A program made the position numbers and the translations under genes. 64,000 nt of DNA from Escherichia coli. GTDB lineage: Bacteria; Pseudomonadota; Gammaproteobacteria; Enterobacterales; Enterobacteriaceae. A model generated the notes under the pieces. That model ran no database searches and was not told the DNA's origin. It was given only the letters and a program-made list of their open reading frames with translations. The stretch lies in the NCBI RefSeq assembly GCF_003018255.1, contig NZ_CP027440.1; one strand, written 5' to 3'. Positions 4,718-58,948 of the stretch are shown piece after piece (position 1 is the first letter of the stretch; each line of letters starts with the position of its first letter).

Positions 4718-5746
4718 TTACTGCTGGCGTAGCTGGAGATCCAGCGGCGTTTTGCTGGGTTCGCCGCCAATTTCTCGCGCCAGTTTAGGCACCAGATATC
4801 CCGACACCAGTGTCAGCAACTCACGCATAATCTGCCGTGCTTCGTCATCACTCACCATAAAATGCGCCGCGCCCTGTACTTTATCGAGCACATGCAGGTA
4901 ATACGGCATCACGCCCGCATCGAACAACGCATTACTCAGGTTTGCCAGCGTTTGCGCGTTATCGTTCACACCACGTAACAGAACGCTCTGGTTGAGCAAA
5001 GTAACGCCTACCCGGCGCAACTTAGCCATCGCCTGACGGAATGTTTCATCTACCTCATTGGCATGGTTAATGTGATTCACCAGCAAGATTTGCAGCGTAG
5101 AATGAGAAAAGCGTTCAACCAGCGCATCTGTGATGCGTGCCGGGATCACAATCGGCAGACGGCTGTGAATCCGCAGACGTTTGATATGCGGGATGGCTTC
5201 CAGTTGTGTGAGCAACCAGTCCAGCTCGTGATCTTTCGCCATCAGCGGATCGCCGCCGGAGAAAATCATCTCGTCCAGTTCCGGATGCGCAGCAACATAC
5301 TCAAGTGCAGTCTGCCAGTTACGCTTGTTGCCCTGATTTTCGGCATAGGGGAAGTGGCGACGGAAGCAATAGCGGCAATTTACCGCGCAGCCGCCTTTGA
5401 CCAGCAAAAGCGCCCGGTTGTGGTATTTATGCAACAAACCTGGCACTACGCTGTGCTGTTCTTCCAGCGGGTCGGTGGAGAATCCGGGCGCGACAACAAA
5501 CTCATCTTGCGAGGTAAGTACCTGACGCAAAAGCGGATCGTTCGGATTGCCTTTCTCCATGCGATCGATAAATGAGCGGGGCACACGCAGGGCAAACAGC
5601 TTTTTGGCGCTGCGCCCGGCCAACAGTTTTTCGTCCGCGTCTATATTCAAAAGACGCAGAAGTTCATCAGGATCGGTCACAACATCGGCAAGTTGCGTTA
5701 ACCAATCTTCTCTGGATGGGGTATTTAGGGTTACAATATGCGCCAT
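4718..5746 (-). CDS. epmB: EF-P beta-lysylation enzyme, lysine 2,3-aminomutase-like radical SAM protein EpmB
   Basis: ORF track 342 aa; CAVNCRYC radical-SAM motif; recognised as YjeK/EpmB. Confidence 0.93.
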   Translation of the reverse strand: MAHIVTLNTPSREDWLTQLADVVTDPDELLRLLNIDADEKLLAGRSAKKLFALRVPRSFIDRMEKGNPNDPLLRQVLTSQDEFVVAPGFSTDPLEEQHSVVPGLLHKYHNRALLLVKGGCAVNCRYCFRRHFPYAENQGNKRNWQTALEYVAAHPELDEMIFSGGDPLMAKDHELDWLLTQLEAIPHIKRLRIHSRLPIVIPARITDALVERFSHSTLQILLVNHINHANEVDETFRQAMAKLRRVGVTLLNQSVLLRGVNDNAQTLANLSNALFDAGVMPYYLHVLDKVQGAAHFMVSDDEARQIMRELLTLVSGYLVPKLAREIGGEPSKTPLDLQLRQQ

Positions 5747-5787: not shown

Positions 5788-6354
5788 ATGGCAACGTACT
5801 ATAGCAACGATTTTCGTGCTGGTCTTAAAATCATGTTAGACGGCGAACCTTACGCGGTTGAAGCGAGTGAATTCGTAAAACCGGGTAAAGGCCAGGCATT
5901 TGCTCGCGTTAAACTGCGTCGTCTGCTGACCGGTACTCGCGTAGAAAAAACCTTCAAATCTACTGATTCCGCTGAAGGTGCTGATGTTGTCGATATGAAC
6001 CTGACTTACCTGTACAACGACGGTGAGTTCTGGCACTTCATGAACAACGAAACTTTCGAGCAGCTGTCTGCTGATGCAAAAGCAATTGGCGACAACGCCA
6101 AATGGTTGCTGGATCAGGCAGAGTGTATCGTAACTCTGTGGAATGGTCAGCCGATCTCCGTTACTCCGCCGAACTTCGTTGAGCTGGAAATCGTTGATAC
6201 CGATCCGGGCCTGAAAGGTGATACCGCAGGTACTGGCGGCAAACCAGCTACCCTGTCTACTGGCGCTGTGGTTAAAGTTCCGCTGTTCGTACAGATCGGC
6301 GAAGTCATCAAAGTGGATACCCGCTCTGGTGAATACGTCTCTCGCGTGAAGTAA
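5788..6354 (+). CDS. efp: Elongation factor P
   Basis: ORF track 188 aa; [25 protein letters not shown]... recognised as EF-P. Confidence 0.97.
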
Positions 6355-10602: not shown

Positions 10603-10610
<8 letters not shown>

Positions 10611-12411
10611 TCGCCTTCTCCTTCTTATTGGCTGCTTCCGCCTTATCGGCTGCATCCGCTTCGCCACCGTAAACACGTTTAGCTGGCGGCAGCGTAGTAA
10701 TCTTCACGTCGCTGTACTCCAGGCGAGTTGTGCCATCAGCATCGCGGAAGGCGAGGGTGTGTTTGAGGAAGTTGACGTCGTCACGCTCGGTGCAACCTTC
10801 GTCCAGACGCTGGTGCGCGCCGCGGGACTCTTTACGTGCCATTGCGGAGTGCGCCATACATTCAGCAACGTTCAGACCGTGGCCCAGCTCAATGGTGTAG
10901 AGCAGGTCGGTGTTGAACACGCTGGAAGTGTCGGTGATGCGCACGCGCTTGAAGCGTTCCTGCAGCTCTGCCAGCTTGTCGATGGTTTTCTGCATCAGTT
11001 CCGGCGTACGGTAGATACCGCAGCCTTCTTCCATGGCCATGCCCATTTCGTCGCGGATCTTAGCCCAGTTTTCGCCGCCATCCTGGTTAACCAGATCTTT
11101 CAGGCGCTGTTCAACGCCAGCAACCTGAGCATTGATTGCTGCATCGTTGCCATTACCGGCAGTAGATGCGCGTTCCATAGCTTGCTCACCGGCCAGACGA
11201 CCGAAGACCACCAGTTCCGCCAGCGAGTTGGAGCCCAGACGGTTCGCACCGTGCAGACCAACAGAGGAACATTCACCCACGGCGAACAGACCTTTAATGC
11301 GGGTTTCACAGTTCTGATCGGTTTCGATACCGCCCATGGTGTAGTGTGCGGTCGGACGTACCGGAATCGGTTCTTTAACCGGATCGACGCCAACGTACGC
11401 TTTCGCCAGTTCGCAGATGAACGGCAGACGTTCATGCAGTTTTTTCTCGCCGAGGTGACGCAGGTCGAGATAAACCACATCGCCACGTGGCGTGGAGATG
11501 GTGTTGCCTTTACGCCATTCGTGCCAGAAGGCCTGAGAAACTTTGTCGCGTGGACCCAGTTCCATATATTTGTTTTTCGGCTCGCCCAGCGGAGTTTCCG
11601 GGCCCATGCCGTAATCTTGCAGATAACGGTAGCCATTTTTGTTGACCAGAATACCACCTTCACCGCGGCAGCCTTCTGTCATCAGGATACCGGAACCGGG
11701 CAGACCGGTTGGGTGATACTGAACGAATTCCATGTCACGCAGCGGAACGCCGTGGCTTAGCGCCATACCCATACCGTCACCGGTAACGATGCCGCCGTTG
11801 GTGTTGTAACGATAAACGCGACCCGCACCGCCGGTAGCCATAACGACCGCGTTAGCACGGATCTGCACCAGCGTGCCTTCCATCATGTTCATTGCTACCA
11901 GGCCGCGAACATGACCATCATCAACCAGAATATCCAGCACGAAATGTTCGTCAAAACGCTGGATCTGCGGGAATTGCAGAGAGGTCTGGAACAGCGTGTG
12001 CAGCATATGGAAGCCGGTCTTATCGGCGGCGAACCAGGTGCGCTCGATTTTCATGCCGCCGAAGCGACGTACGTTGACGCTACCATCCGGGCGACGGCTC
12101 CATGGGCACCCCCACAGTTCCAGTTGGGTCATTTCGGTTGGGCAGTGGTGGACGAAATAATCCACGACATCCTGCTCACACAACCAGTCGCCACCCGCTA
12201 CTGTATCGTGAAAGTGATATTCGAAGCTGTCATGATCCTGCGCGACAGCGGCGGAGCCCCCTTCTGCAGCAACGGTATGGCTACGCATCGGGTATACTTT
12301 TGAGATTAGTGCGATTTTTGCATTTGGATTTGCCTGCGCGGCAGCAATTGCAGCACGTAATCCCGCGCCACCGGCGCCTACAATGGCAAGATCGGCTTGA
12401 AAGGTTTGCAC
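10603..12411 (-). CDS. frdA: Fumarate reductase flavoprotein subunit
   Basis: ORF track 602 aa; [21 protein letters not shown]... recognised as FrdA; overlaps frdB start by 8 nt. Confidence 0.97.
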
Positions 12412-12735: not shown

Positions 12736-13713
12736 ATGAGCGAAACGGCATCCTGGCAGCCGAGCGCATCCATTCCTAACTTATTAAAACGCGCGGCGAT
12801 TATGGCGGAGATCCGTCGTTTCTTTGCCGATCGTGGAGTGCTGGAGGTGGAGACGCCTTGTATGAGCCAGGCGACGGTAACCGATATTCATTTGGTCCCG
12901 TTTGAGACACGTTTCGTAGGCCCCGGGCATTCGCAGGGGATGAATCTCTGGTTAATGACCAGCCCGGAATACCATATGAAACGCCTGCTGGTTGCTGGTT
13001 GTGGGCCGGTATTCCAGCTGTGCCGCAGCTTCCGTAATGAAGAGATGGGGCGTTATCACAACCCTGAGTTCACTATGCTTGAGTGGTATCGACCGCACTA
13101 TGATATGTACCGGTTGATGAACGAGGTGGACGATCTCTTGCAACAGGTGCTGGACTGTCCGGCAGCAGAAAGCCTTTCTTATCAACAAGCTTTCTTGCGT
13201 TATCTGGAAATTGACCCACTCTCTGCCGACAAAACGCAACTGCGGGAAGTGGCAGCGAAACTGGATTTGAGCAACGTTGCCGATACTGAAGAAGACCGCG
13301 ACACGCTTCTACAATTGCTGTTTACCTTTGGCGTAGAGCCAAATATTGGCAAAGAAAAACCGACCTTTGTGTACCACTTTCCAGCCAGCCAGGCATCACT
13401 GGCGCAAATCAGTACCGAAGATCATCGGGTCGCTGAACGCTTTGAGGTTTATTATAAAGGTATTGAGCTGGCGAATGGTTTCCATGAATTGACGGATGCC
13501 CGTGAGCAGCAACAACGCTTTGAACAAGATAACCGTAAGCGCGCGGCGCGCGGTTTGCCGCAGCACCCCATTGACCAGAATCTGATTGAAGCCTTGAAAG
13601 TCGGTATGCCTGACTGTTCCGGCGTGGCATTAGGCGTTGATCGTCTGGTGATGTTGGCGCTGGGCGCGGAGACACTGGCTGAAGTCATCGCCTTTAGCGT
13701 TGACCGGGCATAA
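12736..13713 (+). CDS. epmA: EF-P lysine-lysyltransferase EpmA (PoxA/GenX)
   Basis: ORF track frame; start at internal ATG 12736 ([17 protein letters not shown]), 325 aa; class II aaRS-like. Confidence 0.93.
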
Positions 13714-26291: not shown

Positions 26292-27629
26292 ATGATGTAT
26301 CGCATCAGAAATTGGTTGGTAGCGACGTTGCTGCTGCTGTGCGCGCAGGTGGGTGCCGCGACGCTCTCTGATATTCAGGTTTCTAACGGTAATCAACAGG
26401 CGCGGATAACGTTGAGTTTTATTGGCGATCCTGATTATGCGTTTAGCCATCAAAGCAAACGCACCGTGGCGCTCGATATCAAACAAACGGGCGTGATTCA
26501 GGGACTGCCGTTGTTGTTCAGCGGCAATAATCTGGTGAAGGCGATTCGCTCTGGAACGCCTAAAGATGCACAAACGCTACGGCTGGTGGTCGATCTTACC
26601 GAAAATGGTAAAACCGAAGCGGTGAAGCGGCAGAATGGCAGCAATTACACTGTCGTCTTTACGATTAACGCCGATGTGCCGCCACCGCCTCCTCCGCCGC
26701 CTGTGGTTGCGAAACGCGTTGAAACGCCTGCGGTTGTCGCACCGCGCGTCAGCGAACCGGCGCGCAATCCGTTTAAAACGGAAAGTAACCGCACTACGGG
26801 TGTTATCAGCAGTAATACGGTAACGCGTCCGGCAGCGCGTGCGACGGCTAACACTGGCGATAAAATTATCATCGCTATTGATGCCGGACACGGCGGTCAG
26901 GATCCTGGCGCTATCGGCCCCGGTGGTACGCGGGAGAAAAATGTCACCATCGCCATCGCGCGTAAATTGCGTACTTTGCTCAATGACGATCCGATGTTTA
27001 AAGGCGTTTTAACCCGTGACGGGGATTACTTTATCTCGGTGATGGGGCGCAGCGATGTGGCACGTAAGCAAAACGCCAATTTCCTCGTGTCGATTCACGC
27101 TGATGCCGCACCGAACCGCAGTGCGACTGGCGCTTCCGTATGGGTGCTCTCTAACCGTCGCGCCAACAGCGAAATGGCCAGCTGGCTGGAGCAGCACGAG
27201 AAACAGTCGGAGCTACTGGGCGGAGCGGGCGATGTGCTGGCGAACAGTCAGTCTGACCCCTATTTAAGCCAGGCGGTGCTGGATTTACAGTTCGGTCATT
27301 CCCAGCGGGTAGGGTATGATGTAGCGACCAGTATGATCAGTCAGTTGCAACGCATTGGCGAAATACATAAACGCCGACCAGAACACGCGAGTCTCGGCGT
27401 TCTGCGTTCGCCGGATATTCCGTCAGTACTGGTCGAAACCGGTTTTATCAGTAACAACAGCGAAGAACGTTTGCTGGCGAGCGACGATTACCAACAACAG
27501 CTGGCAGAAGCCATTTACAAAGGCCTGCGCAATTACTTCCTTGCGCATCCGATGCAATCTGCGCCGCAGGGTGCAACGGCACAAACGGCCAGTACGGTGA
27601 CGACGCCAGATCGCACGCTGCCAAACTAA
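26292..27629 (+). CDS. amiB: N-acetylmuramoyl-L-alanine amidase AmiB
   Basis: ORF track frame; start at ATG 26292 ([22 protein letters not shown]), 445 aa; contains an 8-Pro linker. Confidence 0.93.
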
Positions 27630-42116: not shown

Positions 42117-42515
42117 ATGCATATACTGGATTCACTTCTTGCCTTTAGCGCTTATTTTTTTATTGGTGTGGCTATGGTGATTATTTTTCTGTTTATCTAC
42201 TCCAAAATTACACCGCACAACGAATGGCAGTTAATCAAAAATAATAACACCGCGGCGGCACTGGCGTTCAGCGGAACATTGTTGGGGTACGTGATCCCCT
42301 TATCCAGTGCGGCAATCAATGCGGTGAGTATTCCAGACTATTTCGCATGGGGCGGGATTGCTCTGGTGATTCAATTACTCGTTTTTGCTGGCGTCAGGCT
42401 TTATATGCCCGCATTAAGCGAAAAAATTATTAATCACAATACCGCAGCAGGAATGTTTATGGGAACCGCCGCGCTGGCTGGCGGTATTTTTAACGCAGCT
42501 TGTATGACATGGTAA
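42117..42515 (+). CDS. yjfL: Inner-membrane protein YjfL (DUF350)
   Basis: ORF track frame; start at ATG 42117 (MHILDSLLAFSAYFFIGVAMV), 132 aa. Confidence 0.85.
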   Translation: MHILDSLLAFSAYFFIGVAMVIIFLFIYSKITPHNEWQLIKNNNTAAALAFSGTLLGYVIPLSSAAINAVSIPDYFAWGGIALVIQLLVFAGVRLYMPALSEKIINHNTAAGMFMGTAALAGGIFNAACMTW

Positions 42516-57087: not shown

Positions 57088-57579
57088 ATGGGTAAAAAAA
57101 CAGCACCGTTACTCCCTTATACGAATCAGATGCTTAGTGAATTTGGTGAGCGGCTGAAACTTGCTCGTTTACGACGCAGGCTTACCGCAAAGCAAGTTGC
57201 TGAACGTGCTGGGATGTCGCCAATAACATTGCGCTCTCTGGAGTCAGGAAGTGCAGGGGTCACGATAGGGGCATATTTGTCTGTGATGCAGGTTTTGGGC
57301 CTGGAAACGGATTTAAATAAGCTTGCAGCTGAAGACGACTTAGGGCGTCAGCTCCAGGATTCCCGTTTGATTAAAAAAAGAGGGCTTTCTCGTGCATCAA
57401 GTAAGAATGAAGAAGGTTCTCAGACAGCCTCATTGCAGATGAGGCACGAGAAAGAAGGTCATCTCACCACGGATTTAACAGCACTGGCAGAAGGCTCGAC
57501 GCCATCTATTACAGGAGAAACATCAACCTCTCTTGCAGCACTATTAAAACCGATAAAAAAACCGTTAAAAGGAAATTAA
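57088..57579 (+). CDS. XRE-family helix-turn-helix protein with extended Ser/Thr-rich C-terminal tail; putative HipB-like antitoxin/repressor
   Basis: ORF track 163 aa; N-terminal region ([32 protein letters not shown]) has the XRE/Cro-type HTH pattern; stop lies 2 nt before the kinase start. Confidence 0.7.
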
Positions 57580-57581
57580 TT

Positions 57582-58850
57582 ATGGCATTAATCGGAGTGT
57601 ATGCGGATTGGGAAGGCCTGGATGGTCCGGAGCGGATTGGTTATTTACACAGTCGCCGCACTCGGACGCGTGAGATATTTGAGTTTGAGTACGATAAAAA
57701 GGCGCTTGCAGATCCTTCACTTAATTTCATTCAGTTAGATCCTGAAATAATGTTGTATGAGGGAGCACACTACCCAATTCCTCCAAAGGATAAATTTGGT
57801 GCATTTAGTGATTCCTGCCCGGATCGTTGGGGGCGTATGCTAATGAAGCGTCGTTTTGAGAGGGATATTCGAGACGGGTTATGTGATAAAGACTCCCACC
57901 TTTATGAGTCTGATTATCTACTAGGTGTTCATGATCTTTATCGGGTTGGGGCCCTTCGATACAAACGTGAAGACGCTGGAGAGTTTCTTGATAATCGCAT
58001 TGATGTTGCAGCCCCACCATTTACCGAAATAGCGAGTCTGGAAAGGGCTAGCCGGGCAATTGAAGAAGATCCTGATAATAAAGAGCTAATGGGGCAAAAA
58101 TGGTTAAGAATGCTAATCGCTCCGGGGGGATCATTAGGGGGGGCACGTCCGAAAGCCAGTGTTGTTGATGAAGCTGGGCATCTCTACATCGCTAAATTTC
58201 CCAGTGTAAAAGATGAGTATGATGTTGGTGGATGGGAAATGGCCGTTAATGCACTTGCTGTTGGCTGTGGACTGAATGTTGCACCTGCTCAGGCGCATAA
58301 ATTTGCCAGCAATTACCATTGTTTTATGGTTCGTCGTTTTGACCGCACTAATGCGGGAAGGCGTCTGCATTTTGCTTCGGCTATGACACTAACCAGGCAT
58401 CAGGATGGTGAAGATGCCTCTACAGGTGTGAGTTATCTGGAATTAGCAGATGTTCTTATCAGGCATGGCGCGCAGACTAATACTGATCTTAAGGAACTCT
58501 GGTCCAGGATTGTTTTTAATATTCTTGTTTCTAATACCGATGATCATTTACGCAATCATGGATTTATCTTGATACCAGGAAAAGGTTGGCGGCTTTCTGA
58601 GGCATATGATTTGAATCCTGTGGTCAGGTCTGATGGTTTAAAACTCAATATTACGGAAAATGACAATGCACTTGATTTGGAATTAGCTAGAGAAGTTGCA
58701 GAGTATTTTCGACTTAGTTTGACGGAAGCTGATGACATTATTGCTAATTTTAGAGGGATTGTCAGTCAGTGGCGAATCATTGCCGAGCGTCTGAGATTAC
58801 CTGGTCGTGAGCAAGAGTTAATGGCAGAGGCATTCAGAGCGTCAATTTAG
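57582..58850 (+). CDS. HipA-family serine/threonine kinase (putative toxin)
   Basis: ORF track 422 aa; HipA-like motifs GGARPK (res ~186-191), NTDDHLRNHG (res ~318-327), AYD (res ~341-343) and N-terminal SDSCPDRWGR resembling the HipA N-subdomain; RBS aaaagga. Confidence 0.75.
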   Translation: MALIGVYADWEGLDGPERIGYLHSRRTRTREIFEFEYDKKALADPSLNFIQLDPEIMLYEGAHYPIPPKDKFGAFSDSCPDRWGRMLMKRRFERDIRDGLCDKDSHLYESDYLLGVHDLYRVGALRYKREDAGEFLDNRIDVAAPPFTEIASLERASRAIEEDPDNKELMGQKWLRMLIAPGGSLGGARPKASVVDEAGHLYIAKFPSVKDEYDVGGWEMAVNALAVGCGLNVAPAQAHKFASNYHCFMVRRFDRTNAGRRLHFASAMTLTRHQDGEDASTGVSYLELADVLIRHGAQTNTDLKELWSRIVFNILVSNTDDHLRNHGFILIPGKGWRLSEAYDLNPVVRSDGLKLNITENDNALDLELAREVAEYFRLSLTEADDIIANFRGIVSQWRIIAERLRLPGREQELMAEAFRASI

Positions 58851-58948
58851 AATAGTTATTTCGATATATTCGCTAAATCATAAATTTGCGAAGCAATGCC
58901 AGTAGATACTGAACGTTTTGGAAGAGACGTTTAATTTATGAGAAAAAT

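Follow-up and report, generated by a model that had tools for sequence, protein, structure and literature searches.

An eight-proline run at the start of the interdomain linker of the Escherichia coli amidase AmiB: length variation and relation to the nearby elongation factor P genes

The proline tract in amiB and the domains of AmiB

The window analysed here is a whole stretch of 64,000 nucleotides (nt) of Escherichia coli DNA (contig NZ_CP027440.1 of assembly GCF_003018255.1). The element in question is a run of eight consecutive proline (Pro) codons in its amiB gene, which encodes the N-acetylmuramoyl-L-alanine amidase AmiB; the same window holds the genes for elongation factor P (EF-P) and two of its modification enzymes. 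The run reads ccg cca ccg cct cct ccg ccg cct at positions 26679-26702 on the plus strand, with all eight codons in frame, and corresponds to AmiB residues 130-137. An earlier description of the same DNA (the original prediction) had stated that amiB contains eight Pro codons of mixed ccg/cca/cct type, and this was confirmed at these positions. The longest C stretch within the tract was 2 nt, indicating that the tract is not a DNA homopolymer. The gene and its parts are given below, in which AF2 denotes an AlphaFold2 model of AmiB built from a 53-sequence alignment.

26292-27629, plus strand: amiB coding sequence, N-acetylmuramoyl-L-alanine amidase AmiB, 445 amino acids (aa) and a stop codon (NCBIfam NF007751, Pfam Amidase_3 and AMIN, RefSeq annotation of the identical gene)
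26292-26360, plus strand: N-terminal export signal (predicted), residues 1-23, with a putative cleavage site (from the sequence and a hydrophobic AF2 helix spanning residues 2-17)
26361-26672, plus strand: AMIN domain, beta-rich, targeting septal peptidoglycan, residues 24-127 (Pfam PF11741 and AF2)
26673-26864, plus strand: interdomain linker, of high Pro, Val, Thr, and Ala content and predicted to be disordered, residues 128-191 (AF2, composition, and natural insertions and deletions)
26679-26702, plus strand: the eight Pro codons, first element of the interdomain linker, residues 130-137 (a Pro run occupies the same position in relatives)
26865-27551, plus strand: Amidase_3 catalytic domain, residues 192-420 (Pfam PF01520, PDB 8c0j, and AF2)

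The NCBIfam equivalog model NF007751 (AmiB) matched the product over its full length (residues 1-445 of 445) with a score of 978.5 bits against a cutoff of 532, and at the DNA level the gene was 100% identical to amiB as annotated in E. coli RM14723. Furthermore, an amiB match was present in 5,425 of 5,426 complete E. coli genomes. Pro makes up 6.3% of AmiB, and a run of eight or more in 445 residues is accordingly expected about 1e-7 times (0.063^8 x 445); the run is therefore not a chance event and lies far beyond what chance would give. When the window was translated in six frames, no other Pro run was longer than four residues, and all remaining runs of at least three Pro sat in short open reading frames (ORFs) that were out of frame.

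Two further readings of the tract were considered and rejected. A 104-aa ORF on the minus strand (26577-26891), with RRRRRRW opposite the tract, is not a gene, as it only reflects the amiB CCN codons read on the complementary strand. In addition, two CCU-C sequons (cct-cct and cct-ccg) were found at 26688-26696, a type that has been reported to favour +1 frameshifting (PMC8129111). The frame entered by a +1 shift at these two sequons stops after 42-43 codons, and no sign of its use was seen.

Subsequently, the position of the run was examined with respect to the domains of AmiB, which we take to be a periplasmic protein exported by a route other than Tat. The Pfam AMIN model (PF11741) matched residues 27-112, marginally, at 20.8 bits against a cutoff of 20.5. 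In the AF2 model, residues 24-127 formed an all-beta domain of eight strands with a predicted local distance difference test score (pLDDT) of about 73-90, the last strand covering residues 118-127. The Amidase_3 model (PF01520) matched residues 194-413 (E = 2.8e-48), and the catalytic domain in the AF2 model started at residue 192 with a pLDDT mostly above 80. PDB 8c0j, the only solved structure of E. coli AmiB, matched residues 190-422 only (E = 5e-143). Between the two domains, the pLDDT was below 50 across residues 131-188, giving a low-confidence linker of about 58 residues. In this model the Pro run starts three residues past the last AMIN strand and opens the linker toward the catalytic domain. 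A cryo-electron microscopy study of FtsEX-EnvC-AmiB in 2023 left an AMIN-catalytic linker of about 40 residues unbuilt and termed it flexible (PMC10214136).

In 2018, Qi et al. reported that polyproline motifs of E. coli are depleted within domains and enriched between -2 and +9 residues of domain ends (PMC5811046), and the position of the AmiB run fits this general enrichment. As in interdomain linkers of Pro-rich type in other periplasmic and envelope proteins, the AmiB run follows a domain end and lies in a disordered linker that accepts insertions and deletions. It differs from other Pro-rich linkers in being unusually long without interruption for E. coli, and the remaining linker, with much Val, Thr, Ala, and Arg, shows no repeating Pro-X pattern. 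The paralogous division amidase AmiC of E. coli (PDB 4BIN) has the same architecture of AMIN and Amidase_3, with a homologous catalytic domain (E = 7.6e-49). It is a different equivalog, and the AmiC model scored 210 bits on the AmiB of the window against a cutoff of 700.

Natural variants of the linker were also observed. AmiB proteins of 414-420 aa from E. coli and Shigella kept the eight Pro and had lost 25-31 downstream linker residues (approximately residues 153-183, positions 26748-26840). An example of such a deletion is VSEPARN...RPAAR, and short microhomologies ('cgc g / cgt g') mark the junctions. The AmiB of Escherichia whittamii, with 455 aa, carried a 10-residue tandem duplication, PVVAKRVE(A/T)P, directly after the eight Pro. 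These natural deletions of 25-31 aa and the duplication of 10 aa indicate that the AmiB linker tolerates large in-frame insertions and deletions.

Variation of the run among species and strains

The amiB gene was taken from those species representatives of GTDB that encode a close relative, among which 79 species of Enterobacteriaceae were usable. The Pro run began at residue 130, right after the motif FT(I/L)xAD-x, in all 79 species. Its length was three Pro in one species, four in one, five in 12, six in 15, seven in 15, eight in 29, nine in five, and ten in one. The synonymous ccg, cca, and cct codons varied freely among the species, while the residues remained Pro. Because the Pro residues are kept while their synonymous codons are shuffled, selection acts at the protein level, as had been proposed for this tract from the mixture of codons in the window alone.

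The codons used in the runs were compared with the Pro codons elsewhere in amiB. CCC accounted for 2.6% of run codons and 9.6% of Pro codons elsewhere, and CCA for 24.6% and 11.5%, respectively; in both comparisons the Fisher P value is inflated by the kinship of the 79 species. Unlike CCC, CCU was not avoided inside the run. Krafczyk et al. (2021) showed that consecutive Pro codons avoid CCC and favour CCA genome-wide, partly against slippery CCC/U-C sequons (PMC8129111). The codon choice in the AmiB runs matches, and so reproduces, this published rule.

For more distant homologues, the best 150 representatives of 50%-identity clusters were drawn from a library of 1.8 billion proteins, and 42 of them had an AMIN domain, an amidase domain, and a linker in between. 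No more than two adjacent Pro were found in the linker of 36 of the 42. Runs of 3-6 Pro were seen in the closest relatives only, namely those with more than about 70% identity in the AMIN domain. From these sequences, the Pro run is specific to the Enterobacteriaceae lineage, and AmiB homologues outside the family lack it.

Length variation was also found within E. coli. A second common AmiB allele encodes 443 aa with the sequence ADAPPSPPPVV, its DNA reading ccg cca tcg cct ccg cca. This 6-codon allele differs from the 8-codon one by a deletion of six bases and by a C-to-T change, the latter placing a Ser within the run. The two alleles were counted with tract-centred queries of 141 nt (8-codon) and 135 nt (6-codon) against the complete E. 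coli genomes. The 8-codon query gave 4,554 genomes with a match of at least 95% and 871 below 95%; among the matches listed, the latter spanned 135 nt. In the reverse search, the 6-codon query gave 851 genomes at 95% or above and 4,565 below. Accordingly, about 84% of the 5,425 complete genomes carry the 8-codon length and about 16% the 6-codon length. Every inspected sequence of the 6-codon allele read PPSPPP, and the strains Nissle 1917 and ABU 83972 belong to this group. Rare alleles had five Pro (strain N17), six Pro (SCPM-O-B-7615), and eleven Pro (EC42405), the last showing an apparent ccg-cca-ccg duplication. The tract of K-12 MG1655 was the same as that of the window except for the last codon, which is ccc in place of cct.

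Selection for eight Pro as such, as the original prediction could be taken to imply, is not borne out by these data: the length ranges from three to ten across species, alleles of six codons and of five, six, and eleven Pro occur in E. coli, and the run is missing outside the family. Given the length polymorphism within E. coli and the plasticity of the linker, the exact number eight is under no visible constraint.

Such in-frame variants of five, six, eight, and eleven codons in one species, and the likeness of the eleven-Pro allele to a ccg cca ccg duplication, are what a hypermutable trinucleotide repeat would produce, that is, a contingency-type locus generating AmiB variants by expansion and contraction. 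We consider this highly improbable. The tract is imperfect, with at most two identical codons side by side and no C run above two, whereas contingency loci are perfect tandem repeats whose length changes switch the frame or the expression of a gene. Each sampled allele was one fixed sequence shared by many genomes, with the split of about 84% to 16% described above, rather than a scatter of lengths. Moreover, all variants were in frame with no frameshifting variant seen, and the CCC codons that would be the source of slippery C homopolymers are avoided.

Taken together, these findings suggest that the run is in all probability a lineage-specific, length-variable proline spacer that starts the interdomain linker of AmiB, with EF-P needed for it in a generic manner and the proximity of the EF-P genes being ordinary. 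The eight Pro would encode a stiff N-terminal segment, of the polyproline-II type, in an otherwise flexible linker. This linker would join the peptidoglycan-targeting AMIN domain to the catalytic Amidase_3 domain in a periplasmic, septum-splitting amidase. Selection would retain several prolines at this place, while their number may drift by in-frame insertions and deletions of codons. Slow translation would then be a by-product, since consecutive Pro codons delay the ribosome. EpmA and EpmB produce beta-lysyl-EF-P, which would speed Pro-Pro bond formation here as it does for every polyproline protein.

Ribosome pausing at the run and its interpretation

The eight-Pro run and its pause have been known since 2015. 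Martens et al. (Nucleic Acids Res 43:3680; PMC4402525) reported amiB as the gene with the longest consecutive Pro-codon run in E. coli, eight codons. Their ribosome profiling of wild-type cells gave a sharp footprint peak at these codons, described as a 'dramatic ribosome pause', with codons 130 to 138 boxed. The gene, the eight codons, and the species are the same as in the present case, and nothing of substance differs. Hence, the pause at the tract for which the original prediction had suggested ribosome profiling was already published for wild-type E. coli. Its premise that polyproline stalls ribosomes unless beta-lysyl-EF-P relieves the stall is established, textbook biochemistry (Ude 2013 and Doerfel 2013, as cited in PMC4402525). 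What the present analysis adds to Martens et al. is the domain context, the length variation at the level of species and strains, and an examination of the linkage to the EF-P genes.

A full-text literature search for AmiB together with EF-P or polyproline returned Martens et al. (2015) as the only relevant paper. No mention of amiB was found in Elgamal 2014 (PMC4140641), Starosta 2014 (PMC4176338), Qi 2018 (PMC5811046), or Krafczyk 2021 (PMC8129111), supplements included. In reporters, deletion of efp makes a six-Pro stretch lower the output 3-4 fold more than three Pro, and Val at position -1 forms a strong stalling context (PMC4140641).

The pause could itself be what selection maintains. 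The run would then act as a translational brake, in which a pause at the AMIN boundary sets a low AmiB copy number in the manner of CadC, or provides time for folding or targeting, and AmiB output would report EF-P activity. Several observations are in line with this. The run starts three residues past the domain end, inside the zone of -2 to +9 residues where polyproline is enriched (PMC5811046), and its start position is invariant in the 79 species. The pause is present even in wild-type cells (PMC4402525), and longer runs stall more strongly in reporters (PMC4140641). However, the length of the run varies from 3 to 11, and about 16% of E. coli genomes carry the 6-codon allele with a Ser inside the run (PPSPPP where inspected). 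AmiB outside Enterobacteriaceae lacks the run, and yet the enzyme is needed in those bacteria too. As an exported protein AmiB folds in the periplasm, so that a co-translational folding pause in the cytoplasm has little to act on. Furthermore, the faster codons CCG and CCA are preferred in the run and the slow CCC is avoided, whereas a tract tuned to be slow would show the reverse. On balance, a selected brake seems unlikely. The PPP motif of CadC has been argued to be regulatory, through copy number; in AmiB, by contrast, the length polymorphism and the lineage restriction argue for a structural linker with stalling as a side effect.

Several points weigh against the interpretation of the run as a linker spacer. 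We infer the spacer role from the position and composition of the run only, and the size of the dependence of AmiB on EF-P is an inferred quantity as well. The strict conservation of the run start directly after the domain end is also compatible with a selected translational pause. In addition, loss of efp leaves the levels of most PPP proteins unchanged (PMC4140641). Finally, no direct report of AmiB levels or pausing in efp, epmA, or epmB mutants was located in the literature covered, which was without Peil 2013 and Woolstenhulme 2015. Work of 2013 reportedly included the EF-P-dependent synthesis of AmiB in vitro, among proteins translated with and without the factor.

The pause may alternatively be viewed at the level of the transcript, as an EF-P-sensitive valve on the long tsaE-amiB-mutL-miaA-hfq transcription unit. 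With EF-P activity lowered, ribosomes stalled at the eight Pro would lose their coupling to RNA polymerase, and premature (Rho-dependent) termination would follow, with less read-through into mutL, miaA, and hfq. If so, the natural alleles with PPSPPP, five Pro, and eleven Pro would set different strengths of coupling. Polarity by this mechanism was shown by Elgamal et al. (2016) with PPPPPP reporters (PMC5021804), and amiB is not among the candidates named in the main text of that paper. No Rho-utilisation signature was found after the run: C/G in 78-nt windows peaked at 1.56, a value near the 5th percentile for the whole window, and was about 1.0 downstream, with no C-rich, G-poor, rut-like region. 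The genes downstream of amiB have internal promoters, which also weighs against a valve. We regard such a valve as very doubtful.

Independently of these interpretations, the natural alleles at this one site (five Pro, six Pro, PPSPPP, eight Pro, and eleven Pro in E. coli, and three to ten Pro in the family), carried by genes that are nearly identical elsewhere, form a native panel for the effects of run length on EF-P dependence, AmiB dosage, and operon polarity.

The EF-P genes and the gene neighbourhood

Three genes of the EF-P pathway lie in the window upstream of amiB.

5788-6354, plus strand: efp, elongation factor P, intact, with Lys34 in KPGKGQA (NCBIfam TIGR00038 and NF001810)
4718-5746, minus strand: epmB, lysine 2,3-aminomutase-like EF-P modification enzyme, divergent from efp, intact (TIGR03821 equivalog, 533 bits)
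12736-13713, plus strand: epmA, EF-P-(R)-beta-lysine ligase, adjoining frdABCD, intact (NF006828 equivalog, 604 bits)

The efp product scored 253.6 bits with TIGR00038 against a cutoff of 185.8, and its residues 31-37 read KPGKGQA with the modifiable Lys34; epmA and epmB had no internal stops. EF-P itself has a PP motif (TPPNF, residue 127). With eight Pro codons in frame in a translated ORF, where three suffice, the amiB run has the form of the known EF-P-dependent polyproline stalling motifs (PPP/XPPX; Ude 2013, Doerfel 2013, Peil 2013), and the host likewise has a Lys34-containing EF-P, EpmA, and EpmB.

The EF-P genes had been placed 15-22 kb upstream of amiB. This holds for efp and epmB, which lie at 20.3-22.0 kb, whereas epmA is closer, at 13.0-13.9 kb. 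The EF-P system of the window had also been called complete. However, the annotation covering the window contains no epmC (yfcM), the gene for the Lys34 hydroxylase. The activity of EF-P does not require EpmC.

The RefSeq annotation gives the gene order tsaE-amiB-mutL, and other E. coli contigs showed amiB with the same neighbours. The interval from epmA to amiB holds, on both strands, yjeM, yjeN, yjeO, mscM, psd, rsgA, orn, three tRNA-Gly genes, queG, nnr, and tsaE. Thus, amiB and the EF-P genes belong to separate transcription units with at least 10 unrelated genes on both strands intervening. Of about 66 genes in the window, amiB was the only one with PPP or a longer run. Among the 53 window proteins that were mapped exactly, 16 contained PP motifs, 22 motifs in total; about 26 would be expected in 53 proteins at the K-12 frequency of 2,115 motifs per about 4,300 proteins (PMC5811046). 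The count was at or below the genome average, and no enrichment of polyproline clients around efp was detected in these 53 proteins. A genome reportedly holds about 100 PPP proteins, a figure said to go back to Ude and Peil in 2013. On this figure, about one PPP gene is expected within ±22 kb of efp, and one was seen.

These data bear on the possibility that the co-location is functional, that is, that amiB and the EF-P genes are co-inherited or co-regulated, with AmiB as the most extreme EF-P client of the cell. The four genes do lie within 23 kb, and in a genome of 4.75 Mb a gene named beforehand would have a chance of about 1% of lying no more than 22 kb from efp. The gene was, however, chosen post hoc, and the single PPP gene seen is the number expected this near efp. 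None of the marks of a functional cluster of EF-P with a client, namely a shared operon, adjacency, or enrichment of clients, was found. The intervening genes include three for tRNA, amiB stands in its own conserved tsaE-amiB-mutL block, and epmC lies elsewhere. Moreover, the run is missing in more distant AmiB homologues, so that the neighbourhood cannot have been built around it. We therefore give a functional co-location practically no credence. The location of amiB near efp, epmB, and epmA is ordinary enterobacterial gene order and not a functional cluster, and the significance that the original prediction had implied for the shared window finds no support. For calibration, the presence of efp, epmA, and epmB in the same window says nothing about the run, and eight is not a conserved quantity.

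The stretch from 4718 to 56686 is rich in genes of translation and RNA metabolism. In addition to efp, epmA, epmB, rsgA, orn, the three tRNA-Gly genes, queG, and tsaE, it contains miaA, hfq, hflX, rnr, rlmB, and rpsF-priB-rpsR-rplI. In spite of this density, amiB remains the single gene of the window with PPP or more.

Several other genes of the window were compared with their counterparts in RM14723, the genome that matched best. Differences in frdA and yjfL indicate either that the window does not belong to the RM14723 assembly or that the frameshifts annotated there are assembly errors. A HipA-family toxin gene on the plus strand (57582-58905), beside a helix-turn-helix gene (57088-57579), is frameshifted, as its length is not a multiple of three and it has two in-frame stops; the HipA-family gene is annotated as frameshifted in RM14723 too. 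The gene frdA (10603-12411, minus strand) is an intact ORF of 602 codons in the window and is annotated as frameshifted in RM14723. Similarly, yjfL (42117-42515) is intact in the window and frameshifted in RM14723.

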